Source: Lytechinus pictus (lineage: Eukaryota). From it: DNA of 64,000 bases. A program made the position numbers and the translations under genes. Position 1 is the stretch's first letter; the number at the start of each line of letters is the position of its first letter. Below are positions 1 through 52,340 of the stretch, one piece after another. The stretch is from positions 25,794,001 to 25,858,000 of the forward strand of contig NC_087245.1 in NCBI RefSeq assembly GCF_037042905.1, given 5' to 3'. The notes under the pieces are model-generated. The model did not search any database. It saw only the letters and a list, made by a program, of their open reading frames with translations, and had not been told where the DNA came from.

Positions 1-1138
1 TTCTACAGAGAAGCATCAGTCTAGGATGAATTTGGGTTATCAAGGTTGGTACGTAATTGTAAAATCGATTGCAACTGTCAACCTGAATTACTGCTATGTT
101 TACACCGTGTTTTCGTCTTTTATGCTTCCTACAGTGTGCAAAAGAATAATTAAATTTAGAAAGTTATCAATTAATCGATGAGGACATCAAATATCGATAT
201 TCAAATAGAACAGGATGTATCTTCTTCCCTGCGTGTTTGATCAAGATCAATATATACTCTGCTTATTAGATTACTCTCACGGCCGAAATGTAAAATCTAA
301 TTATTGCTCATTACGTCCAATGTTAATCATCTTATGTTACGATTACAGAGATAAGTGAGTGACCCAATTAGGTCTTTGGTCTGTGGCGCGCAAGCATCAT
401 ATAAATATATATTATAAATATACAAATATATATATATCAGGTTCAAGACAAATAACATGTTCGATCGAACGCCCTTTTTCTCTTTGTAAATCACTTGCCT
501 TTCAATATTTTCACATCCATTTAAATATAAATATATGTACATGTATATCATATCCGACAGATCAATATAAACAACACAACATAACATATTGATAAACAGT
601 AAATATATACCAACTGCTTTACGTTTCTAAATGTTATTATTGAAAGTATTTGAAAAAAAAGGGTTTGAAGAATAAAGGACATATATATTATTCCAAAGAT
701 TTAGCACATTATGAAATGAATACATAATAACATATAAATAAAACATAACACTATACCATGGCTCAAATACCATAGTAATACCAACAACATCTATAATAAT
801 TATACTAATAACTGTTATTTACCCAAGGTAGCCACTTAATCTATTTGCTGATTTTTAAACGGTCCCTGTATAACATAATACACTACTCAAAAAAAGTTAA
901 GGACCACTTTTTAAAACGTACATAAAGATTTTATACAAGGTGTTTTATTTCTGGAAATACCTCAGTACAACTGTCCTAAATGTCCTTAAACACGCTGTAA
1001 TCAATTTCACGCATGGGTGGTTTCAGTTGTTGCACAATGTCTCTCGCATCACTGCACATCCTGAAAAGTGGGCCCCGAGGGGTATCAGCTACCGACATGA
1101 AGTGGTAAAAACGAATATCTGAGTGTCTTTCAGGCAGT

Positions 1139-2119
1139 TCAGTAACGAGTGTGACCACCTCCTGCAGCAATAACGGCTTCACAGCGCTGTCTCATGGAGC
1201 TGATGAGGCGATTGATGTCTCTGACGTCCAGTGCATCCCATGCAGCCTCCAGAGCCACACCCAGCTGCTGCAGTCCAAGTGGATGGGCTTCGAGCTGCTC
1301 GAGACTCCTCCCCATCATGTCCCAGACGTGCTCTATCGGGTTTAAGTCCGGGGACCTCGCTGGCCACTCCATACGCTCAATCCCCTGGCCCTCAAGGAAC
1401 TCGGTCACCACCCTAGCTCGGTGGGCACGGGCATTGTCATCCATGAAAATGATGTTTTGTCCCACATTTTCTGCAAATGGCACCACTATAGGTTCAAGGA
1501 CCTCATCCCTGTACCTCACCCCTGTCATTGCTCCCCCTGGGACCACGTAGAGACGAGTACGGTTGGCGTAGGTGATGCCTCCCCACACCATGACGCTGCC
1601 TCCCCCATAACGGTCATGTTCTGCAATACAGGGGTCTGCAAATCTCTCTCCTGGTCGCCTCCAGACTCTCGAACGTCCATCATTGTGGTCAAGGGAAAAT
1701 CTGCTCTCATCTGTGAACAGAACTCTACGCCATTGCTGTCTGGTCCATCTGACATGCTCCCGGGCCCAGTTGAGACGAATTCTTCTGTGAGCAGGGGTGA
1801 GTGGGACACACTGAGCTGGCCGTCTGGCATGCATATTGGCTCTGTGAAGTCGGTTACGGATTGTTTGAGTGGAAACAATCACGCCAGTTGCTGCAGCGAA
1901 GTCATCGTTGAGGTGGCGTGCACTGTGAAAGCGGTTGCGGAGGCTGAGATTCGTCAAGTAGCGATCATCTCTAGGGGTTGTCGAAACTGGTCGGCCACTG
2001 CGGGGTCTCTCGGAGTATAGCCCTGTCTCTCGGTGTCTTTGATTTGCTCTGCTAATGACACTGTGTGACACGCCCATCATTCTGGCTACTCTTCGCTGAC
2101 TGAGGCCAGCTTCCAGCAT
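1139..2119 (-). CDS. Second Tc1 transposase copy lacking the native start; a 326-aa ORF can start at internal Met17
   Basis: Reverse complement of the + copy. Differs at two residues (SARHLNDDF vs SARRLNNDF). Homology stops at 2132, so about 12 N-terminal codons are missing. Confidence 0.8.
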   Translation of the reverse strand: MLEAGLSQRRVARMMGVSHSVISRANQRHRETGLYSERPRSGRPVSTTPRDDRYLTNLSLRNRFHSARHLNDDFAAATGVIVSTQTIRNRLHRANMHARRPAQCVPLTPAHRRIRLNWAREHVRWTRQQWRRVLFTDESRFSLDHNDGRSRVWRRPGERFADPCIAEHDRYGGGSVMVWGGITYANRTRLYVVPGGAMTGVRYRDEVLEPIVVPFAENVGQNIIFMDDNARAHRARVVTEFLEGQGIERMEWPARSPDLNPIEHVWDMMGRSLEQLEAHPLGLQQLGVALEAAWDALDVRDINRLISSMRQRCEAVIAAGGGHTRY

Positions 2120-2142
2120 CCCTAGGGCTCTGGCTGTGGATT

Positions 2143-2540
2143 CAAATGCATTTTCTGTCTTTAGTCTCTACAATCAACAAATTGCTGACAACAGCAATGC
2201 CAAGATACAGCTGTCCAGGATGCCATCAAACACAATGAAATCAATTTCACACATGCAGTTCTTTCATGTCTCTTGCATCATTGCAATGTGCCCGTACAAA
2301 AGTGGCTTCCAAAGCATTTTCTGTCTTTAGTCTCTACAATCAACAACTTGCTGACAATAGCAATGCCAAGATACAGCTGTCCAGAATGCCATCAAACACA
2401 ATGACATCAATTTCACACATGCAGTTCTTTCATGATGTCTCTGGCATCATTGCAGTGGGCCATAAGACAAGTGTCTTCCAAAGCATTTTCCGTCTTTAGT
2501 CTGTACAATCAACAACTTGCCTACAACAGCAATGCCAAGA
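2143..2540 (+). repeat. About 2.4 tandem copies of a ~167-bp unit forming the Tc1 spacer / 5' region
   Basis: GCATTTTCTGTCTTTAGTCTCTACAATCAACAA...AGCAATGCCAAGA recurs near 2148, 2314 and 2483. The third copy supplies the transposase ATG. Confidence 0.9.
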
Positions 2541-3560
2541 CACCACCTAAGTGAAACAGATGTAGACAGAGCCCTAGGGATGCTGGAAGCTGGCCTCAGT
2601 CAGCGAAGAGTAGCCAGAATGATGGGCGTGTCACACAGTGTCATTAGCAGAGCAAATCAAAGACACCGAGAGACAGGGCTATACTCCGAGAGACCCCGCA
2701 GTGGCCGACCAGTTTCGACAACCCCTAGAGATGATCGCTACTTGACGAATCTCAGCCTCCGCAACCGCTTTCACAGTGCACGCCGCCTCAACAATGACTT
2801 CGCTGCAGCAACTGGAGTGATTGTTTCCACTCAAACAATCCGTAACCGACTTCACAGAGCCAATATGCATGCCAGACGGCCAGCTCAGTGTGTCCCACTC
2901 ACCCCTGCTCACAGAAGAATTCGTCTCAACTGGGCCCGGGAGCATGTCAGATGGACCAGACAGCAATGGCGTAGAGTTCTGTTCACAGATGAGAGCAGAT
3001 TTTCCCTTGACCACAATGATGGACGTTCGAGAGTCTGGAGGCGACCAGGAGAGAGATTTGCAGACCCCTGTATTGCAGAACATGACCGTTATGGGGGAGG
3101 CAGCGTCATGGTGTGGGGAGGCATCACCTACGCCAACCGTACTCGTCTCTACGTGGTCCCAGGGGGAGCAATGACAGGAGTGAGGTACAGGGATGAGGTC
3201 CTTGAACCTATAGTGGTGCCATTTGCAGAAAATGTGGGACAAAACATCATTTTCATGGATGACAATGCCCGTGCCCACCGAGCTAGGGTGGTGACCGAGT
3301 TCCTTGAGGGCCAGGGGATTGAGCGTATGGAGTGGCCAGCGAGGTCCCCGGACTTAAACCCGATAGAGCACGTCTGGGACATGATGGGGAGGAGTCTCGA
3401 GCAGCTCGAAGCCCATCCACTTGGACTGCAGCAGCTGGGTGTGGCTCTGGAGGCTGCATGGGATGCACTGGACGTCAGAGACATCAATCGCCTCATCAGC
3501 TCCATGAGACAGCGCTGTGAAGCCGTTATTGCTGCAGGAGGTGGTCACACTCGTTACTGA
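2532..3560 (+). CDS. Tc1-family DD34E transposase, intact (342 aa from ATG 2532, MPRHHLSETD...)
   Basis: N-terminal HTH region with GRPVS (GRPR-like) linker. Catalytic motifs FTDESRF, FMDDNARAH and SPDLNPIEHVW, with 34 residues between the second D and E. C-terminus GGHTRY. No stops or frameshifts. Confidence 0.95.
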   Translation: MPRHHLSETDVDRALGMLEAGLSQRRVARMMGVSHSVISRANQRHRETGLYSERPRSGRPVSTTPRDDRYLTNLSLRNRFHSARRLNNDFAAATGVIVSTQTIRNRLHRANMHARRPAQCVPLTPAHRRIRLNWAREHVRWTRQQWRRVLFTDESRFSLDHNDGRSRVWRRPGERFADPCIAEHDRYGGGSVMVWGGITYANRTRLYVVPGGAMTGVRYRDEVLEPIVVPFAENVGQNIIFMDDNARAHRARVVTEFLEGQGIERMEWPARSPDLNPIEHVWDMMGRSLEQLEAHPLGLQQLGVALEAAWDALDVRDINRLISSMRQRCEAVIAAGGGHTRY

Positions 3561-3824
3561 ACTGCCTGAAAGACACTCAGACATTCGTTTTTACCACTTC
3601 ATGTCGGTAGCTGATACCCCTCGGGGCCCACTTTTCAGGATGTGCAGTGATGCGAGAGACATTGTGCAACAACTGAAACCACCCATGCGTGAAATTGATT
3701 ACAGCGTGTTTAAGGACATTTAGGACAGTTGTACTGAGGTATTTCCAGAAATAAAACACCTTGTATAAAATCTTTATGTACGTTTTAAAAAGTGGTCCTT
3801 AACTTTTTTTGAGTAGTGTATGTT

Positions 3825-4032: not shown

Positions 4033-6487
4033 AACAAGTGGAATGCCTCTGGCGGTCTCACCTGCATCACGCGATTCAATATAGCAGCAGTGCTGACTTT
4101 GAGAACTACTATAACTCGCACAAGATGTACAGTGATACTTGGTTACTCTTATGTCCACGTTTTATGAACTAGACCAATACACTCACAGAGATATCATGGT
4201 AATTCAACAAATACCCCCAACATGGCCAAAGTTCATTGACCTTACATGACCTTTGACCTTGAACATGTGACCTAAAACTCTCACAGGATGTTCAGTGATA
4301 CTTGATTACTCTTATGTCCAAGTTTCATGAATCAGATCCATAAACTTTCAAAGTTATGATGGTACATGTAATTCAACAAATACCCCCATTATGGCCAAAG
4401 TTCATCGACCTTTGACCTTGGTCATGTGACCTGAAATGCGCACAGGATGTTCAGTGATACTTGATTACTCTTATGTCAAAGTTTTATGAACTAGACCAAT
4501 ATACTTTCAAAGTTATGATGGTAATTCAACAAATACCCCCAATTTGGCCAAAGTTCATTGACCCTAAATGACATTTGACCTTAATCATGTGACCTGAAAC
4601 TTGCACAGGATGTTCAGTGATACTTGATTACTCTTATGTCCAAGTTTTATGAACTAGACCAATAAACTTTCAAAGTTATGATAGTAATTCAACAGATACC
4701 CCCAATTCGGCCAAAGTTCATTAACGCTGAATTACCTTTGACCTTGGTCATGTGACGTGAAACTCATGCAGGATATTCAGTAATACTTGATTAACCTTAT
4801 GTCCAAGTTTCATGAACTAGGTCTATATATTTTCTAAGTTAAGATGACATTTCAAAAACTTAACCTTAGGTTAAGCTTTTGATGCTGATTCCCTCAACAT
4901 GGTCTAAGTTCATTGACCCTAAATGACCTTTGACCTTAGTCCTGTGACATGAAACTCAGGCAGGATGTTTAGTAATACTTGATTAACCTTATGGCCAAGT
5001 TTCATGAACTAGGTTTATATACTTTTTAAGTTATGCTGTCATTTCAAAAACTTAACCTTCGGTTAAGTTTTGGTGTTGTTGCCGCCGCCGCCGCCGTCGG
5101 AAAAGCAACGCCTATACAGTGCGTATAAAAAAAACGGGACAGATTTGAAAAGTCTAAAAAAAATTGTTTCAAATTATGATCTCTATATTTTAGTGTCAAT
5201 AGGTGCTCTGAAGTCTTATCCTTCAAATGCCATTAAAATAATTTAGTTTCGTTCATGCTTGAGCGAACACGGAATGTTTTTGTCTGGGGTTAAAAAGGAG
5301 GCTTGCGTCAAAATGGCATAAAATTATGAATATGATGGTCGGACTTCTTGCGAATCAGCAGACTTCCTCTTAACCTTTTCATTATCTTTGCCATACTTTT
5401 CGAATTATGGGGTCAAAATTCATTTCCAAATCTACTTATTGGCTTGAATATTTCTGTTGTTGTTCCTTTTTAATATGTTCTCTTTTAGCTTTGAATATTC
5501 CTTCTTTAGGCAAGAACAATTTTTTTTTTACCGAAGTATGGGAGAGCGTGATTTTTTTTAAATCCTTTCATTGTGTGCTACAAAGGTTATGGTGCCTTTG
5601 AACAGTGGCATACTGATGGGTGGGGGCTCGGGGTCCCCTCCCCCCCCCCCCCCCAAATAAAAAATCATGACCAAGAAAAAAAAGTGGAAAGGAAAATAAC
5701 AGAAAACATAGAAACTGAAATATGATATAATTTTCTGAATATTATGTCAAAATCACAAAATTTGATATTTTAATAAAAAAGCGGAAATTTTTGCTTGCTC
5801 GCTTCTCAAATTTTTAATACATAATACCCGATCTGCCATATCTTGCTCCTCAATACTCCATTGCCATTGAAAGACATGAATCCTTTCCTGTTTGTCCTGT
5901 CAAGCACATAATTAAACTTGGTGAAGGATTCAATAACCCCTTGAAAATAGGATTCATGTCTTCAGGTACCATAACATTATTATTTTGTTTCACATAATAA
6001 AAGGATTTGAATAATTACAAATTCTCTCAATTAATAATGCAAATCTTCTTACTTGGGTTGACAAAAAGTCTTCTTTTCTTAATTATGAAGGAAAATTCAA
6101 AGGTAAAAGAAGTTTAAATGAAAAACAAAATAATTCAGGTAAATAAATAATTTGTAAATGAAATTTGACAGCATAATTCAAAATTATGGCAAAGATAATG
6201 AAAAGAATAAGAGGAAGTCTGCTGATTAACCAAAATTCTAATCATCAAATTTCTTATTTCTGCCATTTTGGCGCAAGCCTCTTTTTGAACCCCCGACAAA
6301 AACGTCCCGTGTTCGCTCAAGCATGAACAATTTTTTTTTTTTTAAATGGCATTTCAAAGATAAGATCTCAGTTAACATCAAAATATAGATAGTAATTTGA
6401 AACAATATTTTGTATAGACTTTTCAAAACTGTCCCGTTTTTTTTATACGCACTGTAGTCTCACTCTGCTATACAGGTGAGACAAAAA
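4033..6487 (-). mobile_element. Non-autonomous Helentron/HINE-like element with internal ~160-190-bp tandem repeats, interrupted by a MITE
   Basis: Subterminal inverted motif GTCTCACCTG (~4056) / CAGGTGAGAC (~6473-6482). End hairpin GTCTCAC..GTGAGAC. Minus-strand ends TTTTTG.. and ..CTTGTT. Six repeat units start near 4119, 4282, 4441, 4604, 4767 and 4959. Confidence 0.7.
5117..6454. mobile_element. Tc1/mariner-type non-autonomous element (MITE) nested in the HINE-like element
   Basis: TA|CAGTGCGTATAAAAAAAACGGGACAG ... CTGTCCCGTTTTTTTTATACGCACTG|TA, with imperfect TIRs of about 300 bp. Removing it restores CCTATAGTCTCAC. Confidence 0.9.
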
Positions 6488-9960: not shown

Positions 9961-11180
9961 TTGGTAGAACGATCCGCATCGAAACGCTGAATTCTGCTTG
10001 GGTGTAGATGATTTTAGAGATCACAAGCTGATATCACAACTGCGTTTATATTGGATTCTTTATGCATTTATGCATTGGAAAAAACTATAATATTAATAGG
10101 TTATATATATATTTATATATTCCAAGTGTTCCCATTTGAAAAAAAAGGAAACAAGTGACATCATTTTATGTGATCTAAAAACATGGTGCCTTAATCTAGA
10201 CTTCTGTTGCTGATTATGTACTTTTTTGTATTTTATTTTCTTTCTGAAAGCCATTCGCCATTTTCCGTTTTTATAATATCTTGTTTTCTGGAACAAGATA
10301 TAATATGAATTGCGATGAATACATTTATCAGAAATTCATCATTTTACTCTGACAGATGACGATGGTTTCAGATTTATATTCCAAATTTTCAGTCTTTCTC
10401 GGATAACTAAACCCCTTAATGAAAAAAAAAATGATAATAATACCACTAAACTTGCTTGACGAACTATACTGACAAACACAAAGTGATTATATTCTGATCG
10501 CTTCTCAAAGTTGTTTGTGGCGTATTTTGATGAAAATATCAATAAACTGTAATGAAAATGGATTAATTGAATATTTCATTGAAGATGTGTTCTTGTAAAT
10601 TAAAATAAACACTTAACCTTTCTAATGCCAACAAAATATTCATTCAAGCATGGATAAGAAAATTTGGAGTAGAGACAGAAGTACATAGAACTGGCATCGG
10701 GGGTTTGGTTGTTTATGAACATGCATTACATATTACTTTTATAAAATAAATTAATTAATGAAATAGGAGAGAAGTGAAAGAAAAAAAAAGCGTTTGGTCT
10801 ATAACCTATGCGCAAACATAATGTTACATAAATTCGATCGTGAAGCTCAATAGGAAATACCCTAATGCCGCAAGTTATTCCTTTGTATATGCTTTTAACT
10901 TCTTCTTAATACAAGATATTGCCTGAGATTTCACAAAAATACATGGCATGTGTCATAAGATAGGCGGATTTCTCAGATGAAGCCAGAGGTAGTAATTAAG
11001 GTTAAGGTCTGATGTTCAGTACATATGGCATGTATTATATACGGCTCGATGAGGATGTGAGCACCTGAACTTATTAAATAAGCCTGGAGGTCAAAGACTG
11101 GACGTTCCTCATCTATACAAACAGACGTCATTGACTTCGATATCACTCCAAAACAAACACACAAACGCATGCAGAATATA

Positions 11181-11997
11181 CACCATGTGAGTAAAAAAGA
11201 AACGAAAAAAAAATCGACACCTCACAAAATTAATGCCCAATTTTAGGAAAAAATGTTTCATGAATACATTATAATTGTGTATGCCCAGAAAGAGTATCGT
11301 CTCCCAAATAAATTGATGCCATATTCATGTGGTAACGCTTGGATAATCAGGGGCCCGTCTTACAAAGAGTTGCGATTGATCCGATCAATCGCAACTATGG
11401 AAAGCCAGCAAAGTCAACATATACAATGCATGTTTGTTCAAAAAAAGTTCTAGATAAATTATGAATGTATATCCATAAATTCATTGATTTCTCGACAATT
11501 TGGTGTGATCTTTGTTAACAAAGGACATTTTGCAAATTTCCTGTAGAAAAAAATTGGATCAATCGTAACTCTTTGTAAGACGGGTCCCATGTGTTATTTT
11601 TTTTTTTTTTGCTTTTTTTTGTGCTGTGATGTAAAGTTCGATTTGCGCCAAAGCAAGGCATGACTGCAATGAATGAATCCAGATGCCACTGGTGTCATAA
11701 TCCTCCATGAGTTAGTAAACATATTTGCAAACCCTTTCAATGAAATTAATATGATAATGAAGTATGAAAAGTGATTTTAAAAAATTATGAAAGGTGTTTT
11801 GCAATGGATTTTAACCATGGATTATGATATCATTGGCAAATGCATGGATTCATTAATTAGAGCCATGCCTTACTTTGGCGGAAGTAAAAATTTACATCAC
11901 TGTAAAAAAAATTATTCTAATCATCCAAGCGTGAATACTTACCACATAAATCAAATTATTTGAGAGAAAATACTCTTTCCGGCGGCCTCACATGGTA
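11181..11997. mobile_element. Old TA-flanked MITE interrupted by a younger MITE
   Basis: TA|CACCATGTGAG ... CTCACATGGTA|TA. Degenerate internal inverted repeats at ~11625-11680 and ~11840-11900. Confidence 0.5.
11350..11588. mobile_element. MITE with GGGCCCGTCTTACAAAGAGTT TIRs (Harbinger-like)
   Basis: GGGGCCCGTCTTACAAAGAGTTGCGATTGATCC ... GGATCAATCGTAACTCTTTGTAAGACGGGTCCC. Related copy at ~63798-63944. Confidence 0.75.
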
Positions 11998-12289
11998 TAT
12001 GTATATTGCATTCTTTCGAAATCAATGTTAGCGTATGTGCTAGTTTTGAATGATGAAAATTGATACTTCACTGTTTTAGTTCCTATCTATGAGGCGCCGA
12101 ATGTACCAATATTATATAGAACAATTATTTGTTATATAATCATTATTTATTAAATAATAACTATTATTTATATATAATTTACATTTTATTTGTAAATAAC
12201 TACTATTATATAAAATATCATTTCTAATTATTTATATATAATTCCAAGTAATACTTCATTATTTGTAAATAATAATAGTTCGACATTCC

Positions 12290-12675
12290 ATTATTTATAA
12301 ATAATGATTATTTGTTTTTCATTATTTATAAATAATGATTATTTGTTTTTCATTATTTATAAATAATGATTATTTGTTTTTCATTATTTACAAATAATGA
12401 TTATTTGTTTTTCATTATTTATAAATAATGATTATTTGTTTTTCATTATTTATAAATAATGATTATTTGTTTTTCATTATTTACAAATAATGATTATTTG
12501 TTTTTCATTATTTATAAATAATGATTATTTGTTTTTCATTATTTATAAATAATGATAATTGGTTTTTCATTATTTATAAATAATGATTATTTGTTTTTCA
12601 TTATTTACAAATAATGATTATTTGTTTTTCATTATTTATAAATAATGATTATTTGTTTTTCATTATTTATAAATA
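12290..12675 (+). repeat. 31-bp AT-rich minisatellite (~12 units), left arm
   Basis: Unit TTATTTATAAATAATGATTATTTGTTTTTCA repeated head to tail. Confidence 0.9.
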
Positions 12676-15477
12676 ATTTGTTGAGTTTTCCATTATTTAT
12701 AAATAATGATTATTTGTTAAATAATGAAAACGTCTACTTCATTATTTATAAATAATTTTTTCGAGTGCACCATTATTCTCATTATTTATAAATAATCATT
12801 ATTTAATGTTCGAGTTTTCCATTATTTATAAATAAAGATTATTTGTTAAATAATGAAATATCTACTTCATTATTTATAAATAATAATTTTGTTTCAATAT
12901 CCCATTAATCATTATTTATAAACAATTTTTACAGTTTGCCATTATATACAAATAATCATTATTTATATACAAATAACCATTATTTATTAAATAATGCCAT
13001 TATTTATTAAATAATGCCATTATTTATTAAATAATGCCATTATTTATTAAATAATGGAAAACTCGCTATAACATGCAATTGTGGGACCGCCCATGATATG
13101 AATATTCATGATGCGATTTCCTTTTTCGTGATTTTTCTTCACAAATTTTTGTCCATTTCCTCTTCATAATGACATTTCTTGAAGCAATTTTCTAGGGATA
13201 TGGTCTGATTGTAATAATCTTCATTTTCTATATAACTTCGTCTTCGTAGAAATATCAAAAAGTGTAATTTTATACGATTTTTCCTACAGTTCACAATCCC
13301 CATAGGCGCGCGTGTACGGTAGGGACAACCGGTGAATCGACGGAGTGCTCTTCATCGAAATACTACGTTGGTTGGTCCCCGGAAGTGGCGGGCGGAATTT
13401 AGCCCGAATCCTCGATGGAAGTCGATCAAGTGCATATGAGCTGAGAGAGTGAAATATCAGTGTACTTGTACAGGCCCTTCTACTTTTTATAAATATTTCT
13501 TGTTGCTTTTTTTGTTAAGTTAATTTTTCCTGGTGTAGAGATAAGTTTCAGTTCTAATAATGCACTTCAAATACATTTTGGAGTGTCTGTTTGAGGCGTT
13601 TGGGGCGATTTCACCCTGGCCCCAAAATGCTCGCAACGACAATACGGGGGCATGATCATGATGACCCCTAAATTTTTAAAAACTTATTTTTCTATTGAAA
13701 ATTATCACAAAATTCACCAAAAGTGTGCACGAAAGCCTTCGTATTTCACTTTTAAAACTCCAAAAAGTGCCCAAATGACAAGCTTGGTCGCTTCGCTGTG
13801 TCGCTTTCAACTTGAGAAAGTTTACGCGTCTGCTTCCCCCCCCTCCTCCGAAAGAAATTATGTATACGGCCATGCTCTAAAGAGCCTGGCACATTGATTT
13901 ATGTATACTTCATTTTCATTATTTTTATCTCATTATCATCATGGCCTTACGCATAATTTTTTCCGGGGGGGGGGGAGCAGCTAGGACGCGCGTAAAGTTT
14001 CTCAAAAAAATCTTGAAAGCGAGACAGCGACGCGACCAAGCTCAAATGACAAGCTTGGTCGCTTCGCTTTTTCAAGATTTTTATGAGAAAGTTTACGCGC
14101 GTCCTGCTCCCCCCACCCCCCCCCCCCCCGGAAAAAATTATGCGTAAGGCCATGATGATAATGAGATAAAAATAATGAAAATGAAGTATACATAAATCAA
14201 TGTGCCAGGCTCTTTAGAGCATGGCCGTATACATAATTTCTTTCGGAGGAGGGGGGGGGGGGGAAGCAGACGCGTAAACTTTCTCAAGTTGAAAACGACA
14301 CAGCGAAGCGACCAAGCTTGTCATTTGGGCACTTTTTGGAGTTTTAAAAGTGAAATACGAAGGCTTTCGTGCACACTTTTGGTGAATTTTGTGATAATTT
14401 TCAATAGAAAAATAAGTTTTTAAAAATTTAGGGGTCATCATGCCCCCGTATTGTCGTTGCGAGCATTTTGGGGCCAGGGTGAAATCGCCCCAAACGCCTC
14501 AAACAGACACTCCAAAATGTATTTGAAGTGCATTATTAGAACTGAAACTTATCTCTACACCAGGAAAAATTAACTTAACAAAAAAAGCAACAAGAAATAT
14601 TTATAAAAAGTAGAAGGGCCTGTACAAGTACACTGATATTTCACTCTCTCAGCTCATATGCACTTGATCGACTTCCATCTAAGATTCGGGCTAAATTCCG
14701 CCCGCCACTTCCGGGGACCAACCAACGTAGTATTTCGATGAAGAGCACTCCGTCGATTCACCGGTTGTCCCTACCGTACACGCGCGCCTATGGGGATTGT
14801 GAACTGTAGGAAAAATCGTATAAAATTACACTTTTTGATATTTCTACGAAGACGAAGTTATATAGAAAATGAAGAATATTACAATCAGACCATATCCCTA
14901 GAAAATTGCTTCAAGAAATGTCATTATGAAGAGGAAATGGACAAAAATTTGTGAAGAAAAATCACGAAAAAGGAAATCGCATCATGAATATTCATATCAT
15001 GGGCGGTCCCACATTTGCATGTTATAGCGAGTTTTCCATTATTTAATAAATAATGGCATTATTTAATAAATAATGGCATTATTTAATAAATAATGGTTAT
15101 TTGTATATAAATAATGATTATTTGTATATAATGGCAAACTGTAAAAATTGTTTATAAATAATGATTAATGGGATATTGAAACAAAATTATTATTTATAAA
15201 TAATGAAGTAGATATTTCATTATTTAACAAATAATCTTTATTTATAAATAATGGAAAACTCGAACATTAAATAATGATTATTTATAAATAATGAGAATAA
15301 TGGTGCACTCGAAAAAATTATTTATAAATAATGGAAAACTCGAACATTAAATAATGATTATTTATAAATAATGAGAATAATGGTGCACTCGAAAAAATTA
15401 TTTATAAATAATGAAGTAGACGTTTTCATTATTTAACAAATAATCATTATTTATAAATAATGGAAAACTCAACAAAT

Positions 15478-15862
15478 TATTTATAAATAATGAAAAACAA
15501 ATAATCATTATTTATAAATAATGAAAAACAAATAATCATTATTTGTAAATAATGAAAAACAAATAATCATTATTTATAAATAATGAAAAACCAATTATCA
15601 TTATTTATAAATAATGAAAAACAAATAATCATTATTTATAAATAATGAAAAACAAATAATCATTATTTGTAAATAATGAAAAACAAATAATCATTATTTA
15701 TAAATAATGAAAAACAAATAATCATTATTTATAAATAATGAAAAACAAATAATCATTATTTGTAAATAATGAAAAACAAATAATCATTATTTATAAATAA
15801 TGAAAAACAAATAATCATTATTTATAAATAATGAAAAACAAATAATCATTATTTATAAATAA
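15478..15862 (-). repeat. 31-bp AT-rich minisatellite (~12 units), right arm
   Basis: Reverse complement of 12290..12675, with the same variant units in mirrored order. Confidence 0.9.
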
Positions 15863-18119
15863 TGGAATGTCGAACTATTATTATTTACAAATAATGAAGT
15901 ATTACTTGGAATTATATATAAATAATTAGAAATGATATTTTATATAATAGTAGTTATTTACAAATAAAATGTAAATTATATATAAATAATAGTTATTATT
16001 TAATAAATAATGATTATATAACAAATAATTGTTCTATATAATATTGGTACATTCGGCGCCTCATACCTATCGGGGTGCTTTACATCGACAAGTGAAATTG
16101 ACAACTAAATCGTCATTACGGAACCCGGAAAACCTGACCATAATACAAAAAAAGAAAGTTTCCATTGTATACAAAAAGGGCAAAACATTTCACTTAAAAG
16201 GTTTTGAGCAAAGAAAACATGAATCCTTAACTATCTAGACAACTATCAGGTAAGAATTTAATCGGTTGACCCATTCATGCCAGTGGTATACATAAACAAA
16301 TTTCCGACGTTCAGAAAGAGATTTCGAATAGCTAAAGTCATTCGGATGTTAAAAACTGATTCTCTCGTCAGTGCCAGTACACGTAGATTTACTTGAGCTA
16401 TTTGGTTGCTTATCAGATTTCAGTCATGCTTAAAATAAACGTGGATGATAAACCGCCTTGTGATGTGATCTGATATATAAATAGAATCCCAATCCATATG
16501 ACTGGACGCTAATTGTCATTGTCAAGACTAGAGGAAACAATTTGAATAAATCAAGTATCTTGTGAGAATACTATTCTCATAAAATATACGACTTTAATAC
16601 GGCCTCTATTTGAAGCACAATGAGGTTTTACACCCTTACATAAAGTAAAGTGACGGTTTGTACTATTCCATTTAAATGAAATTCTTTAAAACCAACTAAC
16701 GATATAATAAGGTTCATGCACTTCTGGAGAGTCAACTTACCGTTATGTGGTATATAACTATGAGAAAAAAGATGCCTAGAAATAAATTTACCTTCAAAAA
16801 TACAGTAATTTTCTGGCAACTTCTGCGCAACTTCTGTCCGTGAAATTTACAGTTTAGCGTATATCTTTGAGACCTTTAAGCTGGGTCTTTCGTAAATGAA
16901 ACGCTTTTTCACGGTAAATTGGGCCGAAAAATTATGGATTTCCCCTTGAAATTTGGTAATTATTAGTGTTTGTTAGTTGAATTTTGCAGACAATTTCTGA
17001 TGGGAAGATGTAAAAAAAAAAGGGGGGGGGGGTTAAAAACCGTACTAAAAGGTAAAACACCTATAGAATGAAAGCTATAATGAATCAGAAGACAACAGTT
17101 TCATACATTTTCACTGCCAAACAGCTATGTATTTTGCTTCATTTTCGATAATGGGCCTATCGCTTTTCAAAAACCTGAATTACATGCCGTCATTCAAAGT
17201 TGAGATTACATGCGTTTATATGAAGACATAAAAATGTGCTTTCAAAATTAGGAATGGGAAAGTTTAAGAACAATATGCACGAGAAGGACTGCATTTTGAA
17301 TATTTACTGCTTATTTTGATAAAACCCAAGCTCTTGAACTCGTTTTTGGCGAAGATTTACAAAAGATGACGTCATAGAATCCTTGCCGGTGAATAGCACA
17401 ATGATACCCATTTTCGATGTTTCCGATTTGTAACGTTTGTAAAACAAATACTCGGCAGGTAAGTTGTAAAAATGCACGAAACTATTTTTGTTGTGTTTTC
17501 CATTAGCTCTCCGTTGAAAATATAGTACCGTGATTGCCGGCGACATGCAAATCTTTATTTCTTTATCAAGGCTTTCACCTTAATGTCGATCCAATCCCAT
17601 CGATGTCAAAACGTAACTATGGTTGTCATTACTGGAGCAGCAACAGACATTCCAAAATATATAAATTACTGTTCATTTGTGTGAAAGAATATGATTCATC
17701 AACATCCAATTCAGTTTCACGAATAGATCAGACGTGTGGTCTCCAACGTCGAAGAATAGCAACAAACACTTTTAAAACTGCCTTTAGGTATCACTATTGG
17801 TACAAACTTAAGATATATCCAAATCTGAACACTTTGATCCCTACCAAAGGTTGGTTTTCAAAAGATACAAATTGAGTTATCTACAAAAACTCTCCGGACA
17901 CCCTGGCTCATCTTTAGCTTTCTTATTAAAGTTGTAAACGGATTCTAAAACAACCTCGGCTCACTTTTTTCTAAACTTGTAGTCCCACTCCTTTTTTTTT
18001 CTTTTAGGATATTTAGGAAATTATGTTCACTTAGGTATTCCTTGGCCCAACAATATTTTCTCGGTTTTCCTTTTTCCTATTAGGTAAACAATATATTTAT
18101 ATATATATGTATATATATA

Positions 18120-18947
18120 CAGTGCATCCCACAAAAAACGAAACCGAGATTTATCGATGATTTATCATAACTTAATCATAAATATAATAGACAAATGACC
18201 TACCATTGTAAAGCTTAGAATCTCCTCTTTCATCTGATATTTATACTCAGATTGTTTCTCATTCACGCATGAGTGAGCAAAAACAATTTGAAGAGGGGAT
18301 ACCAAAAAGTCATTTGGCGGGCTGTATCTGGGTTTCAAAAAGAAAACCACATTTCAAAAAAGTTCAATATCTGCTCTTTAATTTGATACCTCAATGACAG
18401 AAAATTGTCTAGAAATACCAAAGTTCTGGTTATTTGAAATAAGGCTTGAATTTCAACAATTTCATAAAATGAAGAGGTCTTACAGGCTAGCGTTCAAACT
18501 CACTCGACACTCCGTTTTTTTGACGATCAGCCATGCATTATTTTAAAGTTTGTTGTTAACCATGCGATAGCTTCTGTGGGAAACCGGTGAAAACACGTTT
18601 ATTTAATGAAATTATGGAAATACAAGGATTGTTTCGAGGGAACATAACTTTTTTACTTCTTGACCATTTTTTGTGATTAAGGTATCAAATTAAAGAGCAG
18701 ATATTGAACTTTTTAGGCATGTGATTTTCTTTTTGAAATTCAGATACCCCCGCCAAATGAGTTTTTGGTATCCTTTCTTCAAATTGTTTTTGCTCACTCA
18801 TGCGTGAATGAGGAATAATCTAAGTAATATCAGATGAAAGAGGAGATTCTAAGCTTTACATTGGTAGGTCATTTGTCCATTGTATTTGTGATTAAGTTAT
18901 GATAAATCATCACTTAATCTCGGTTTCGTTTTTTCTGGGACGCACTG
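18120..18947. mobile_element. Tc1/mariner-type MITE (~830 bp), copy 1
   Basis: TA|CAGTGCATCCCACAAAAAACGAAACCGAGATT ... AATCTCGGTTTCGTTTTTTCTGGGACGCACTG|TA, with TIRs of about 300 bp. Confidence 0.9.
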
Positions 18948-21900
18948 TATATATAGTGAGGCGATGAAAAACTTACTCTCTGCCTGTCTTGAAACTATCT
19001 TTTGTCCTACGAAAGAATCAAGGATACACATATACATAGAAAAGGCCAATTAACTAAACATGCTGGCAAATGGACAAGAGTTGATTAAAGAAACAGGCTG
19101 GTATTCCTATTTTCTATTCTCGGTCGAGGTTTCTGGTTTTTTTATGTAGTGATATATAGAGTTGAGTGCTTTCTTATCTTAATTTTGGTAATGTAATTTC
19201 CTATTGTTTCTTATTCAGTGTTTTTTGTATTCAGAAAATACTGAATACAGTTTGAGCCGGGTCTAAGTAATTGCATGAAGTTAGGCGCATTCTTTTCTGC
19301 TAATTTAAAGCCGTTTTCCATGTTTATTTCATGTTAACCTTAGACATACATGATCTATCATGCACGAACATCATTATTAAATAGCTGTTTTATGACTAAA
19401 CCGGCCTACCCTCCACGTTTCTTATCATTTGTAATGAATAAAATGTGAAATGATAAATAAAAATAAACAAATTTGTATCCTATTTAATGACTTATTACAC
19501 TAAAAAGCTTATGTTCAATTCAATTCTTTATTCCATTTCCATTCGAAACATAATACAAAGTAATATAAAGTAATATAAATCAAGTACAATTTTACAGCTT
19601 ATGTATAACATGACCAGGCCCTTTGGTTCTTGTTCTCAATATGTTTAAAAAATAGCGGTATGGTAATCCTACGCCAATTACGTGTGTAGGTTGTGATACC
19701 TTGATTGCAATGAGAAAGGGATGAACGATAAACAAGAAGTCTACACCACTTAATCTACTTATTTTCTTCCTCACCCCACCAAATACGATAATCAGTGATG
19801 TGGATTAGCGGAGGAGAGCCCCATGCGCTTCGTAAGGGTGGTACACGAGTACGATACATGCTAGATGGATAGCGGGCAGTATGAGAGACAAAGGTATAAG
19901 GAAATTAAGACCGCGTTTTACTTGACCCTACCAAAACAGGAAGGAAGTTGGCGGGTACTTGGTCTTCGATGTGGAGTTTGTGTGTGTGTGTTTATGTAGG
20001 GTGGGTGGGTGCATTTGGAGGGTTCGGTTTGGTGGTGAGTGGTTTTAATTCCCTTTTTATTCACTTTTTGATTGACCACTATTCGATTGCGGTATGATAG
20101 TAAGAGGTATGTTAGTTGTGTGTTGATTGGTTTGCGCGTAGCTTTGTCCACGGTACGGTTCTGCTGTGACAGAATACCGTTTAATGGCAATATACCACTG
20201 TCATAATGTGTAGTTGCGATAAGTTTCATTGCTGACACGATTGTGAGCTAAATGATTCACCTTAGTAAGAGATTTTAATTCTTATCAATTCCACAGGTCG
20301 AAAAACTTACAGGTTATCAAAAATGCATTGTTTAAGATGCGCAGCGGAACTGTGTACAGTTATTGTGAGATCATAATCAAAATAAGCTTTTAAAGCGCTT
20401 TATAAATAAAATTAACATCGATTGTAGTTTATGGGGCTGAAGAATAATCACGATGATAGTTGTTTCATAGGCAAATTGATTTAAAAGATTTTGTTTTAAG
20501 TATGACCTTTGCTAGACACATCATCAGACTCCTATTAATTCACCAGTCAGGTTAGCAGAATGTAAAACTATTGGCATATATACGTTGAAATATATGGATG
20601 AACGATATTCTATTTTCGCGCACTCAGAATACATTACAAACAGATTAGAAGATGATTGGTATTTCCGATTTATGATTAGCAATAATTATTGATTCCATTT
20701 CTATAAATTGATTTGATTTCCAAAGAAATATCCACGCTTAACGTATAAGGCAACAAGGTCCTTCAGCGCCCACGTGACGTCGGGTGTTGTTTTTGTTATT
20801 ACTTGATTTTTTGTTAAGGCGCTCTCATTAAAAAAATATATATCTGCGCCATTAACGTGAAACCTATTTTTATAAGTAGCAAATCACATTTTGAAGTATT
20901 TAGTAAACCCAAGCCACCAAATTTTCTTTCTTCCTGACAGAAGAGACAGAGATGATATCTAGCTTAGATATTAAACCAGTATCTTGTCAGTTTCAACCAT
21001 GTTTAGCACATTGTATAGGAAATCTGAATATCCATCAACTTACCGTAAATGAAATTACTATTCAGTTAACCTTGCACACCTTATCTTTATTGGTTGTATC
21101 AATAACACTATTGGAAATAACACAGTGTCCCTCAGTGTGTTCAGTGTGTTCCACACTGTGAATTCCACTTCACACTGTTAAATTTGAGCATTTCAACAGT
21201 GTGACTCACATATTCACACAGTCGACCATGTGAAGACGCTGTGTGAACAGTCACACTGTTGATGTGTGAAAACATCTTCACAATGTTGTATTTGAGCATT
21301 TCAACTTGTAAATATTGGTTTTACATAGTCCGCTATGTGAACACAACTGCGTCCTTTCCAGGAGGGAATTAATCACACTCGTAATACAATTTCAGTTAAG
21401 ATTAGATGAACAAGTTTTTTTTTTCTTCTTCCGGTAGACTAATTGGAGATCGGACACCGGATGAGATGAATGGTATCCCTACCGCCAAACATGTACATGA
21501 ATAAATGAACTTTAGTAAATTCGGATTAAACGTCAGATTAAATTGGGTTAGGATTTTATTTCATCAGCATAGAATGTGCCCCGGGATATATTGCGCTAAG
21601 CAATTTGGTTGAAAGGATACCTGGATGCTAACGATCGCTCAAAGTAATGCAATTGCACACCGCTCATACCGTCACAACGCACATGTAGCCAATGAATAAA
21701 TATATTGCTTTCTTATAACCACATTGTATGCGCAAGTTCGCAGAAAAAAACCCATCTCGTATTCTTGAACGAAAAACTTCACAGAATCAAAAGAAATTGT
21801 ATCTGTGAGAATCTCCCTAAAGATTTGTTTGCCTTTCTCGTTTCTTTTTCTTTTCTCCCTTTCTTTGGTATTGAACTCAATGCAAATGGAATACATATTC

Positions 21901-23530: not shown

Positions 23531-23905
23531 ATGACTCGGGGCGTTCCCTCGCAGATTCCGCGGGTGCTGTTTGTAATTTCATTGGTGCTCCTCGTGTGCC
23601 TACCCGGGATCAGCCTCGCAGATAGGGCTTGTTGTCGTCGGACAGAAGGCTGCAACCTCCGAACCGACTGTACGTGTAAGATTCTCGAGATTAGGTGCAG
23701 AGACCCGACCATTGGCATCCAATATTATGGTAAAAGATCCCCAGTCAGGTCAGCACCGTCATATCATGATTCATTTACACCTATTCTACAGAGGATAGCA
23801 GAATTGGCATCACAACATCAGGATGATGAAAGGTGGAAAAGGAAAAGATGGTCTTCTTCAAATAGTCGGTACCCTTTTTATAATTACGACCTGAGGCCAT
23901 TTTGA
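23531..23905 (+). CDS. HCRT: Orexin/hypocretin-type neuropeptide precursor (echinoderm six-cysteine type), 124 aa
   Basis: Hydrophobic signal peptide (aa 1-30, ending ISLA), then DRACCRRTEGCNLRTDCTCKILEIRCRDPTIGIQYY and a GKR amidation/cleavage site. The ACC..CNLRxDCTC..C.DP..G pattern matches echinoderm orexin-type peptides as I recall them (e.g. Asterias rubens OX1). Confidence 0.88.
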   Translation: MTRGVPSQIPRVLFVISLVLLVCLPGISLADRACCRRTEGCNLRTDCTCKILEIRCRDPTIGIQYYGKRSPVRSAPSYHDSFTPILQRIAELASQHQDDERWKRKRWSSSNSRYPFYNYDLRPF

Positions 23906-28413: not shown

Positions 28414-29053
28414 AGCGATAATCTGACGATTAACTGCGCTGAGAAAATGAGTAGTATATGACTCTTGTATGTGAGTTTTGGGGTGTTGAGATCATGCATC
28501 CAAGTAATTTTACTCGGATCTCGCGTTAATTGCTTGCGCGCACACGTGATACCGGCCAAATGTGCAGAGCATGAAGACTTTTCTGGTAAGTTCTACATGG
28601 ACGATGTCACTTATTTGCCCTCCTCATAAATGACTCCAGCAATCGTAGCGGCACACTGGCCTTCACTCCCTTCTGGCCCCGGGGTAGCGGCGCAACAACA
28701 GGCTGGTGAGTGGTTACCCAAACCGAGAGGCGTGAGCCTCGGATGGATGAGAATGCACCCTGTTGTCACCATAAATAGCATTTATGTTTGCCCCATACAT
28801 GTAGGTCTAAGCTATTATTGTCAAGAAAAGTAATTATAGAAGAAAAGGGGGAAAATAAATAAAAAGACATGTAGAACTTACCAGAAAAGTCTTCATGCTC
28901 TGCACATTTGGCCGGTATCACGTGTGCGCGCAAGCAATTAACGCGAGATCCGAGTAAAATTACTTGGATGCATGATCTCAACACCCCAAAACTCACATAC
29001 AAGAGTCATATACTACTCATTTTCTCAGCGCAGTTAATCGTCAGATTATCGCT
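28414..29053. repeat. Inverted duplication with 186-bp arms (28414..28599, 28868..29053) and a 268-bp spacer
   Basis: No mismatches seen by eye. The six-frame track shows the same 49-aa string on opposite strands. Confidence 0.9.
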
Positions 29054-29344
29054 AAAACTAATCAAGTGTGTAATATGCTCACATACTCAAAAAGTCAGTA
29101 AATATACTTTAAACATACTCATTACACTGGGTTAAGTTACTCATTAGATTGAGTTATTCAAATTTACTCACTTGATGTGTCACTATAGTGTCAAATGAAA
29201 TATACTCGACAAGATGAGTTTTCAAAGTACCTTCATTGAGTGAAAGTACTCATCAAAGTATGTCGCTATAGTGTCAAAATTATTTTGACATTTGAGTACG
29301 ATTACTAACACATGCAAGTTTCTGTTTTTTGTGTGTAGAAAAAG

Positions 29345-29545
29345 TTAATTGATCCTAAATGACCTTTGACATTGGTCACGTGACTTAAAGCTCAGGCAGA
29401 ATGTTCATGAACTAGATCCATATACTTTCAAAGACATGATGATATTTCAAACACTTAACCTTGGCTGAGATTTTAATGTTGACTTCGTCGTCGAAAAAGC
29501 GGTGTCTGTAATCTCTCTCTACTATGCATGCCAGACAAAAAAACT
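29345..29545 (-). mobile_element. Degenerate fragment of the GACCTTTGACC HINE-like family
   Basis: Similar to 4915-5115 plus 6455-6487. Another fragment lies at ~44180-44335. Confidence 0.6.
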
Positions 29546-45200: not shown

Positions 45201-46296
45201 TTTATGTAACATTCAGAACAACGTTAAATTATAGTTACAATACTGCCAAAAAATATGACACCTTAAGGAGGCGCTTATTATATTAAAAGTCAAATTACTG
45301 ACACATAAAAACAAACATTGTCTGCTTTTAGTCCTCGTTTCATCCTTGCTGAAGAAACTTTGTGAACGGTCCATTGTTTGGGCATGTTGGGGGCAGGGTG
45401 TGTATGTGCGGGTGTACGCGCGTTTGTGTGTTTTTGTGTAGATGTGTTTGACGTTGAGTATGTGAGAATGGGTATTGGAAATGTAATGCGTTTGAATGTG
45501 TGTGTATTGATGTTATGAAATGTATGTGCGCGTCTCAGGGAATGTATGTTTGTGTGTATGTGTGTTGGGTATGTGCGTATGTTGGCGGGGTGAATGTGTC
45601 GATGTGTACAAGAATGGGGATATGTATGGGGATACGTTTGGGTGGGTGGGATGGTTTCGTTGTTTAGTGAATAGGTGGGTGCGCGTCTTACACGATAATT
45701 ATTAGGGGTGTGTTTGTGTGAGAGTGTTTGTAGTAAGACAATTTATAAAGAACAGGGTGAATTGTTTTTTCCATGATTTATAGTTTGTTGAAATATACTT
45801 CGTGGATATTTTGAATTTACATTTGAACGAAAAGAAACAAAGTGCTGTAATGATGTATGTTGACTCTGACTAATAACCAAATGTTTGTATAAAACTCATT
45901 AAACGACAATTTTAAGTATCATGAGGAAAAGATACACCGTGAGAGATTTTATTTTGAACTTAATACATCACATTGATTACTTTTCAAAGATATTGCAATC
46001 TCTTCAAACTTTATAAAAAAAATCAGAGAACTGTATTAACTGTGGGATTTTCAACCTTTAAGATATGAATAGTTTCATTTGATGCAAACTTACATATTCA
46101 CATTTAATTTGGGTTAAAATCTATTGTAAATAATTGTTTTCAATCAAAATAAAAAAAAACTATTTCGGTTTTCTGACAATTCTTTTTTTGCGGTTTATGA
46201 TCACTCAAATGCTCCAGAATTAATATGTTAAATTTAGATAATAATAAGTTAATTAATGCGTCAACCATGTTTGTACTAGCGTTCATATCCGTTATA

Positions 46297-47119
46297 CAGT
46301 GCGTCCCAGAAAAAACGAAACCGAGATTTATCAATGATTTATCATAACTTAATCATAAATACAATAGACAAATGACCTACCATTATAAAGCTTAGAATCT
46401 CTTCTTTCATCTAAAATTACTTAGATTATTTCTCATTCACGCATGAGTGAGCAAAAACAATTTGAAGAGGGGATGCCAAAAAGTCATTTGGCGGGCTGTA
46501 TCTGGGTTTCAAAAAGAAAACCACATTAAAAAAAAAACAATATCTGCTCTTTAATTAGATACCTCAATTACCGAAAATGGTCAAGAAAAAAGAAAGTTCT
46601 GGTTGTTTGAAATAAGGCTTAAATTTCAATAATTTCATAAAATGAAGAGGTTTTACAGGCAAGCGTTCAAACTCACTCGACACTCCGTTTTGTTGACGAT
46701 CTGCCATGCATTAAGTCTTTTGTTAACCATGCGATAGCTTCTGTGGGAAACCGGTGAAAACACGTTTATTTAATGAAATTATGGAAATACAAGCATTGTT
46801 TCGAGGGAACTTAACTTCTTTACTTCTTGACCAATTTTTGTGATTAAGGTATCAAATAAAAGAGCAGATATTGAACTTCTTAGGCATGTGATTTTCCTTT
46901 TGAAAATCAGATACCCCTCGCCAAATTAGCTTTTGGTATCCTTTCTTCAAATTGTTTTTGCTCACTCATGTGTGAATGAGGAATAATCTAAGTAATATCA
47001 GATGAAAGAAGAGATTCTAAGCTTTACAATGGTAGGTCATTTGCCTACGGCATTTGTGATTAAGTTATGATAAATCATCGCTTAATCTCGGTTTCCGTTT
47101 TTCTGGGACGCATGCACTG
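46297..47119. mobile_element. Tc1/mariner-type MITE (~820 bp), copy 2 of the 18120..18947 family
   Basis: TA|CAGTGCGTCCCAGAAAAAACGAAACCGAG ... GCACTG|TA, colinear with copy 1. Confidence 0.9.
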
Positions 47120-48177
47120 TATATTCATAATCCGTTCGGCTCATTTAGTCACCATCAATAAAAAACCTAACTTCAATTTTGCACCATGGGGAATCAACCA
47201 TTATACTCTACAATAAATATTCTTTCAAGTTTCCAATCACTGATGTTCGTACCATAAAATCGATTCCTTCGTCACACATGTATAGAAATCAATTCAAAAA
47301 TCTTGACATTCAGGTTTTACCATCGACGAATGTCTGCACTTGTTACACATTCGAGTGAGAGAACATTGAAAGGAGGAATGTGTTGAAGTACAACTTCATA
47401 GCATTACTAGATCACAAAGAAATTATACATTATTTATATTACATAAACAGCTAAGGACCCTCCGGGAAGTCTCTAAGGATATCTGCCAAGTACTGAAAAG
47501 CAATGAAGACTGCCACGAGGAAGTATGCAGGTGTGGAGCTACCTCGAAAGGTCCATCGCATTTTCCATAACCTTGCCTGAAGGTGGTTGTATAATTCTAT
47601 TACCAGGCAACCACCGCAGACGCATATACCGGTTTCTTTTTTTTTATCCGAAAGATTTGTGTTTTGTTGATATGTTTAAGACAATATCTTCATACTGTTG
47701 TGAATATTAGCAGATAAGATATTTGTTGGCATTTCTATAGCTTGCATGGGACTAATTTACCCTTTGCTGAGCTTCCACCTTACATTCAAGGTGTGCCATT
47801 TTCCAACCCGTACGAAATGCAGTGTCTTATCCTGCGTTTAAAACACGGACAAAATTTAACTTTCGAAGAAGAAAAAAAAAATTCATATAATACATGTATT
47901 GACTGGCCTTGATGGGGACATCAAATATGCTCCCGCAACAGAATCATATTGGTCTGAGTCTTTAGACGAGGGCAATATGGTTCATTAAAGGGCAAGAAAG
48001 AAAGAAAAGAAGAGCCAGTTAATATTTTTATTACCTACAGCTGTATAATGTGTAATTTGAGCTTCTATTTGGAAGAATTTATATGCCTGTTGCTTACAAG
48101 TATAATTACTTCTGATGTCAGATTATTCACGAACCTGGCGAGGTAATCCTTGCTAAGCAATATCACTGTGACATATA

Positions 48178-48625
48178 CCGTGTTTACACGCTGCATCGGC
48201 TCGCGGTTCTAAACCGCGAGCCGATGCAGCGTGTAAACACGATCGGCTTTTTGTTGCGTGTAAACGCGATGAACTTGCATCGGCTCTCGGTGCAGAATCG
48301 GCAATTTTGCACCACCAAAGTAGTAGGTTCAGAACTGCGAGCCGATGCAGAATCGGCTTTTTTTCTACGTGTAAACAGAAAGCCGATTCTGCATCGGCAA
48401 TTGGCGCGCATTTGATTTACTTTATTATCATGACGTACTTGTAAGCGCACGGATCCAGCGTTGTCTTTATTAATTGTTACCGCGCAGTCGCGCATCATGC
48501 ATGGCGCGCACATACACTTAACGCGTAAAAATCTTGCGCTTGGGTTGATCGGCTGGGAATGCGTATGCACTGGCCGCGCCGCGCATTTTCTACAATCAAC
48601 GAATGTAGAGGGCAGCAACACTTTA
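48178..48625. mobile_element. Partial TA|CCGTGTTTACAC-family MITE, ending at the LINE tail
   Basis: Begins TACCGTGTTTACAC and shares GGCTCGCGGTTC/GAACCGCGAGCC motifs with 51438-52340. No right TIR before the LINE tail. Confidence 0.6.
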
Positions 48626-51436: not shown

Positions 51437-51437
51437 T

Positions 51438-52340
51438 ACCGTGTTTACACTTAATCGGCAATTGGTTCTGAACCAAATGCCGATGCAGAATCGGCATTTG
51501 GATTGCGTTTACACGTTGTTACAGCTCGCCGTTCAGAACCCAGAGCCGATGCAAAAACCTGAAAGGGTACGCATACCTACAATATACGTCATAATAAAGA
51601 CAACGCTGGATCAGTGCGCTTACAATTACGTCACAATGGTAAAGTAATTGAAATGCGCACAAATTGCCGGTGCAGAATCGGCTTTCTGTTTACACGTAGT
51701 AAAAAAGCCGATTCTGCATCGGCTCGCGGTTCAGAACCTACTACTTTTACCGTGTTTACACTTAATCGGCATTTGAATCGGCTCGCAGTTCTGAACCGCG
51801 AGCCGATTCAGCATCGGCTTTTTCATAGCGTGTAAACGCGAGCAACTTGAATCGGCTCGCGGTTCAGAACCGGCAATTTGCACCACCAAAGTAGTAGGTT
51901 CTGAACCGCGAGCCGATGCAGAATCGGCTTTTTTACTACGTGTAAACAGAAAGCCGATTCTGCACCGGCAATTTGTGCGCATTTCAATTACTTTACCATT
52001 GTGACGTAATTGTAAGCGCAATGATCCAGCGTTGTCTTTATTATGACGTATATTGTAGGTATGCGTATCATTTCAGGTTTTTGCATCGGCTCGCGGTTCT
52101 GAACCGCGAGCTGTAACAACGTGTAAACGCAATCCAAATGCCGATTCTGCATCGGCATTTGGTTCAGAACAAATTGCCGATTAAGTGTAAACACGGTATA
52201 TGGTGGTGCAAATTGCCGGTTCTGAACCGCGAGCCGATTCAAGTTGCTCGCGTTTACACGCTATGAAAAAGCCGATGCTGAATCGGCTCGCGGTTCAGAA
52301 CCGCGAGCCGATTCAAATGCCGATTAAGTGTAAACACGGT
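51438..52340. mobile_element. MITE containing a complete inverted copy of the same family (inner copy 51749..52197)
   Basis: Four termini: ACCGTGTTTACACTTAATCGGCA at 51438 and 51749, and its reverse complement ending at 52197 and 52340. The outer halves rejoin to the sequence seen intact in the inner copy. Confidence 0.85.

Follow-up and report, generated by a model that had tools for sequence, protein, structure and literature searches.

The window analysed here is a stretch of 64,000 nucleotides from Lytechinus pictus (RefSeq assembly GCF_037042905.1, contig NC_087245.1, positions 25,794,001 to 25,858,000 of the forward strand), which contains no N. At 12088–16065 it harbours a 3978-bp element that can be regarded, with high confidence, as a real copy of a non-autonomous foldback DNA transposon. 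The whole element ends in TATGAGGCG..CGCCTCATA, i.e. TAT..ATA, and is flanked by two forward-strand copies of a 6-bp target-site duplication (TSD), CCTATC, which sequence comparison places at 12082–12087 on the left and 16066–16071 on the right. Among 13 boundary registers compared, register 0 combines the outermost pairing of the ends with the sole 6-bp duplication; the other registers and longer TSDs were ruled out, none exceeding 6 bp, and the probability of a CCTATC 6-mer at that place by chance is ~1.5e-4. Twelve stop-to-stop frames of 60–100 amino acids are found within the element and none is longer than 100. Eight of these 12 frames, the other four being mirror copies of them, gave no Pfam match at the curated cut-off, and a single sub-threshold match among the eight, to DUF6165 (E 0.032), was discarded. 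The initial annotation, which had given the element these boundaries, ends and duplication and had credited it with no coding capacity, is upheld on both counts. Related termini, at three mismatches or fewer, are represented in the window by the element's own two ends only, with 2.4 expected by chance. The terminus was likewise absent from the viral contigs and prokaryote genomes scanned (0 matches each), and one match of 20–25 bases in a metagenome contig (L001 835–854), which is unrelated, gene-dense and prokaryote-like, was set aside as chance.

Three domains make up each arm: terminal (167 bp), outer (AT-rich) and inner (unique; ~710 bp). On the left, in forward orientation, the terminal (flanking) domain (12088–12254; 16% GC) bears the terminus and is followed by an outer domain (12255–13056) containing 15 copies of a 31-bp unit, 40/80-bp modules, six copies of a 20-bp unit and 20 copies of an 18-bp palindrome, and then by a non-repetitive inner domain (13057–13771; 38% GC) with a private 6-bp duplication at 13651 and a private substitution at 13217. 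The right arm, in reverse orientation, consists of an inner domain (14328–15036) with three private substitutions when set against the left arm and an independent contig, an outer domain (15037–15898) in which the 31-bp array is mirrored, with one additional 80-bp module, one 20-bp unit fewer and 22 copies of the 18-bp palindrome, and a terminal domain (15899–16065) that is the exact complement of its left counterpart. The 20-bp unit is present in 5–6 copies in the outer domain of each arm. The 18-bp perfect palindrome, with 42 copies at two or fewer mismatches (20 left and 22 right) and none elsewhere in the window, may provide putative extra binding sites for a transposase, by analogy with Galileo (PMC3573991). 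Comparison of the outer arms (12088–13939 against 14155–16065) yields 1821 matches, five substitutions and four gap events, namely the 80-bp duplication, one 20-bp unit, the 6-bp duplication and a difference in poly-C length, so that the arms are 99.7% complementary in aligned columns across 1.85 kb. The two 31-bp arrays mirror each other unit for unit even in their rare variants, and 748 bp are complementary at 100%. As the arms are only 0.3% apart and the TSD is intact, the sequence points to a young insertion.

The middle of the element is formed by two opposed units. The first, U (13772–14042; 271 bp; forward), consists of half a (13772–13874), a 65-bp asymmetric spacer and half b (13940–14042), and the second, U' (14043–14327; 285 bp; reverse), is its inverted copy. 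The first 9 nt of U' form a hairpin loop (14043–14051), closed by an 11-bp stem (14032–14042/14052–14062); both agree with the loop and stem first described. With self-complementarity of ~69% in U and ~73% in U', each unit represents a decayed palindrome around its 65-bp spacer. A perfect 26-bp inverted repeat delimits U'; its 5' copy is identical to the start of U (13772–13797), and U is without the last 9 nt of this bounding repeat at its far end. Three layers of symmetry can be distinguished, a/b at 67% and b/b' at 82% of all columns and the arms at 99.7% of aligned columns, and on these figures the layers are considered to differ in age. A scan of viral contigs for the central junction returned no match.

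This organization bears on how closely the arms approach one another. It had been claimed that arms of ~2 kb pair almost to the loop, which holds for the outer arms, at 99.7% complementarity, and fails for the last 66 bp, where pairing is interrupted (13977–14042 against 14052–14107; 52 matches, four substitutions and two gaps); the difference from the outer arms has a Fisher p of 8e-5, for a window picked after viewing the data. Self-comparison attributes the weaker pairing near the loop to the middle being two opposed copies of a self-symmetric unit. The original description of a palindrome was similarly correct as to the fold-back and overlooked both the tandem-array outer domain and the duplicated, self-symmetric central unit. 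The central 581 nt fold with a z of -48.8 against 100 shuffles, well outside chance expectation, and a 101-nt window on the loop reaches -34 kcal/mol, compared with -60 for a perfect control and -8 for a unit's own spacer, hairpin strength being lower because the centre is interrupted. In yeast and primate cells, inverted Alus are described as stalling replication forks when separated by a 12-bp spacer but not by one of 52 bp (PMC7999016). Concern over the instability of the element is fair, yet the interrupted stem should soften it.

Independent evidence on the inner domain and centre is provided by short-read contigs from four runs of four studies (X1, X2, X3 and X14), aligned to 13057–14135 only; what follows is among the pieces, loose ends and difference rows listed for them. 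In a wider set, 17 of 24 runs, from seven studies, contain part of 10800–14135. Contigs cover the inner domain in all four runs, and the inner-arm pieces of X1, X2 and X14 extend over 368–802 bp with 0–4 other letters. At 13217 the right-arm letter is present in all four runs, the 6-bp duplication at 13651 is absent in X1, X2, X14 and part of X3, and an X2 contig has three differences, none of which is among the right arm's four substitutions; both arms therefore carry changes of their own. Two contigs span the junction 14042|14043: X14 record 16, which matches 14019–14090 (72 bp) with no difference, and X1 record 8 (13989–14068; four differences), the latter being the last of three records (6, 7 and 8; depth 50, 42 and 44) that form an unbroken overlapping series between 13836 and 14068. 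A joint between opposite strands in X3 (13939 to 14071; shorter side 79 letters) is read as also running across the junction. The near-identical inner-arm contigs in all four runs, which are accompanied by many variants, support the earlier proposal that the element belongs to a family and, together with the two junction contigs, indicate that the centre is probably real. Depth in X1, ~90 in the arm and ~45 in the centre, fits two arms per centre, although depth is no measure of copy number. X2 has no cover across most of the centre, a gap that proves nothing.

An artefact of assembly would offer a different origin for the symmetry, if a hairpin read, or a flippable single unit in its two orientations, had been fused into one sequence. 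Long inverted repeats are hard to assemble, the differences between the arms cluster at the centre, and no read from this locus was observed in the runs examined. However, an independent run repeats the odd letters of the centre exactly (X14 record 16), X1 also contains the junction, the flanks are unique and the TSD is clean, and both arms differ from the X2 contig by changes of their own, with a perfect extra 80-bp module on the right, all of which renders an artefact highly improbable. Polishing errors, once considered as the source of the odd central letters, were dropped, since X14 record 16 has them unchanged.

Two other contig joints fit copies with a simpler centre. The X3 joint 13784 to 14035 (opposite strands; side 32) fits a unit end joined directly to an arm, and the X14 joint 13818 to 14110 (side 21) has a net skip of ~273, about one unit; both are compatible with single-unit copies. 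A non-coding middle that varies from copy to copy is characteristic of foldbacks, and here variant, probably single-unit middles are represented by short contig joints. These joints, together with contigs of X1, X3 and X14 that link the spacer to half b, bear on the main rival account of the centre, in which 13940–14154 (215 bp) would be a small, older palindrome, resembling a miniature inverted-repeat transposable element (MITE), that was captured in the middle of the element, the element's arms being extended up to it later by arm-to-arm conversion, with no duplication of a unit. This segment has a matching 33-bp inverted repeat at both its ends, divergence is greater between its halves than between the arms, X14 record 16 departs from the reference after 14090 and may come from a free-standing relative, and the inner domain contains a piece common to other abundant repeats. 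However, a foreign insert would explain neither the homology between halves a and b nor the 26 bp with which U and U' both open, and such a capture is considered unlikely. The piece common to other, very abundant repeats lies at 13696–13740, where many contigs have unlike loose ends; it attracts hundreds of unrelated contigs, with a summed depth of >200,000 in X3.

The class of the element can be approached through its ends. Complete IS3EU families are described as always possessing TA..TA termini, usually with a 6-bp TSD (PMC10045372), and the element displays TA..TA ends with the 6-bp CCTATC duplication on the one copy seen with flanks (1/1), so that the initial comparison with the IS3EU signature agrees with the published IS3EU/GingerRoot description. 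The rule applied in Repbase is that the first 11 bases match a classified family with at most one mismatch (PMC4455052); the published end available for comparison comprises five bases, the fungal TAYGG. Very long terminal inverted repeats (TIRs) with a tandem outer and a unique inner domain, by which foldbacks are recognized, are present. A Mutator-type foldback (FB, Tetris) was rejected, the 6-bp TSD falling outside the 8–9 bp of that type, and Polinton/Maverick and Ginger2 were excluded because Polinton ends are given as AG..TC and Ginger ends as TG..CA, likewise with a 6-bp TSD (PMC6839031). On these sequence features, membership of IS3EU/GingerRoot, and mobilization by it, is quite likely. 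Several points count against the assignment: the terminus TATGAGG differs at base 5 from TAYGG, the IS3EU end of fungi (PMC12730594), a single TSD was observed, in this copy only, and the 64-kb window yielded neither a transposase nor an autonomous partner bearing this terminus. The ends of hAT elements are of the YA..TR type. The same foldback anatomy could also have been mobilized by another transposase that generates 6-bp TSDs, e.g. hAT6, whose families are reported to have TSDs of this length and to belong to an animal hAT lineage (PMC12730594); the departure from the fungal TAYGG would be in keeping with this alternative. Given that complete IS3EU families are described as invariably TA..TA and mostly associated with 6-bp TSDs (PMC10045372), such a mobilizer is rather improbable. 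No IS3EU-ended foldback was found in the literature searched, which lacks Repbase and most subscription papers.

Overall, the account moderately favoured is that of a recently inserted foldback copy, mobilized by IS3EU/GingerRoot, with a symmetry built by unit duplication; for the centre taken by itself, unit duplication is reasonably probable. The ancestor would have consisted of an arm, one unit of ~280 bp, itself an old decayed palindrome around a 65-bp spacer, and a second arm. This unit would then have been duplicated in inverted orientation. One route is a template switch while a gap was being repaired; the other is tandem duplication followed by a flip between the unit's own short inverted ends. 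The duplication would have shifted the axis of symmetry to the new junction, where a 9-nt loop remained. For Galileo (PMC3573991) and mariner (PMC4161770), inner sequence is described as having been copied into a TIR in inverted orientation, and short inverted repeats with 3–12-bp spacers are reported at the centre of experimental palindromic duplications (PMC7999016). Outside the final ~66 bp, continuing arm-to-arm conversion would keep the arms almost identical. The two arms share a letter at 13819 and at 13954, positions at which most of the contig depth has another, and this, with the mirrored array variants, reads as copying between the arms. A transposase supplied in trans, most likely that of IS3EU/GingerRoot, would bind the ends, probably helped by the arrayed 18-bp palindromes, and the element would have been excised and then integrated through a 6-bp staggered cut.

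A number of observations weigh against this account. Letters common to both arms could equally be explained as subfamily letters. None of the 24 runs contains half of the flank and arm words of 10800–14135 (best 0.38). X14 record 16 fits along only 72 of its 117 letters, and the two junction contigs, with 24/48 and 54/26 letters per side, are below the bridging bar of 31 per side. X1 record 8 ends with the 26-bp motif, and inverted and head-to-tail units are therefore indistinguishable in it. Each single-unit joint is represented by one contig with short sides (32 and 21 letters). Finally, b and b' are ~10% different, and one recent copying event does not explain this; either the junction would have to be older or the donor another copy of the family.

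Comparison with known systems indicates that the element is a tidy variant of the known foldback transposons, not a new type of element. Foldback elements of sea urchins include the TU elements. The Drosophila foldbacks FB and Tetris, as described (PMC4079207), share with the element kilobase TIRs divided into flanking, tandem outer and unique inner domains, a non-coding middle with no open reading frame (ORF), and numbers of repeat units that differ between the arms. The element is distinguished from them by its 6-bp TSD and TA..TA ends, the TSD of Tetris being 8–9 bp and most foldbacks being of the Mutator type, and by a middle made up of two opposed self-symmetric units and a 9-nt loop in place of an unrelated spacer. 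IS3EU/GingerRoot elements resemble it in their TA..TA termini, their 6-bp TSD and their presence in marine animals (PMC10045372, PMC6839031, PMC12730594); the TIRs reported for GingerRoot are 100–150 bp long, whereas those of the element are ~1.9 kb, without a transposase gene and with the difference from the fungal end at base 5. In Galileo, of the P superfamily, the TIRs have likewise grown through tandem repeats and through the copying of inner sequence in inverted orientation, and its non-autonomous copies include TIR-F1-F1-TIR forms (PMC3573991, PMC4168063). It is described as differing in superfamily and in a TSD of 7–8 bp, with its longest TIRs being ~1.26 kb at 95%, whereas in the element TIR extension has consumed the whole spacer. 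In rearranged mariner MITEs with long TIRs, as in the element, one end has been swapped for an inverted copy of the other; these MITEs are reported to be still mobile and their origin is termed elusive, and they are unlike the element in being short and TA-targeting with a traceable coding parent (PMC4161770).

A closer match for the mariner-type rearrangement, although it was the 3' part that was duplicated, is a second, unrelated palindromic transposon in the window, a Tc1 element at 881–3818, which has TA on both sides and a 3' end at both of its extremities. Its 1255-bp arms differ by six substitutions and no gap. An intact ORF for a 342-amino-acid transposase starts at the ATG at 2532, with a DD34E motif counted by eye, and this ORF and an inverted copy, which lacks approximately the first 10 codons, both face away from a tandem centre of 166 bp x 2.4. 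A read-through transcript would represent a long double-stranded RNA of transposase sequence. Foldbacks are common within the window, and the element is for this reason less exceptional than first rated.

The same kind of rearrangement is displayed by the Tc1 copy and the element, and the occurrence of this conversion in both raises the prospect of a general bias in host repair by which members of several transposon superfamilies would become near-spacerless palindromes that the host tolerates, a proposal that is at present doubtful. Were it correct, the family would represent a living stepwise route from a long-TIR element to an almost spacerless, still-transposing palindrome of 4 kb, in which the central cassette, itself self-symmetric, undergoes a flip and a duplication that reset the axis of symmetry, and a few mismatches beside the loop defuse fork stalling; such kilobase palindromes would perhaps also feed hairpin RNA into transposon silencing. 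Foldback structure has so far been described mostly in Mutator- and P-type elements, and the growth of TIRs until no spacer remains is termed elusive in the mariner literature (PMC4161770). A family with both one-unit and two-unit centres would permit a direct test of TIR growth, and would offer a natural test of how a small number of central mismatches stabilizes a long palindrome.

Downstream of the element, the product of an ORF at 23531–23905 (forward strand; 124 amino acids) has a signal-like N-terminus and includes a six-cysteine peptide and a Gly-Lys-Arg site. Its Pfam match to orexin is weak (E 0.084) and below the cut-off. Starfish orexin-type peptides are described as possessing six cysteines and a C-terminal glycine (PMC4772807), and the ORF is predicted to specify an orexin-type neuropeptide precursor. 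Its ATG lies 7466 bp from the right end of the element, in agreement with the ~7.5 kb upstream position first given. A candidate splice acceptor is located just before this ATG, and a 5' non-coding exon may therefore sit further upstream. It is conceivable on these grounds that the palindrome was kept for a host function, as a control element of the orexin-type gene or as a source of hairpin RNA: the ATG is 7.5 kb away, an upstream exon is possible as judged by eye, and a transcript through the palindrome would fold strongly. Against this, the 0.3% divergence of the arms and the intact TSD point to a young insertion, the element has no Rfam match at the gathering score, and none of the 17 runs containing part of it is recorded as RNA, in what was a search of DNA. 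Nothing in the analysis of the 64-kb window ties the element to the orexin-type gene. A host role can be given scarcely any credence, and this copy is selfish DNA.

The window also contains several other repeats. Two copies, 92% alike, of a long-TIR MITE of ~840 bp with Tc1/mariner-like ends are located at 18112–18955 and 46293–47123, and a 640-bp element at 28414–29053 has 186-bp inverted repeats with 100% complementarity. At 51433–52342 and 48176–48472, palindromic MITE-like copies are nested or overlap; they are built from a short self-complementary motif. On the reverse strand, 49088–51518 resembles ORF2 of a long interspersed nuclear element, with two long frames (474 and 371 amino acids) that are reverse-transcriptase-like by eye. 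A tandem array of 163/192-bp repeats occupies 4113–5072 and has a dispersed relative at ~29340–29480.

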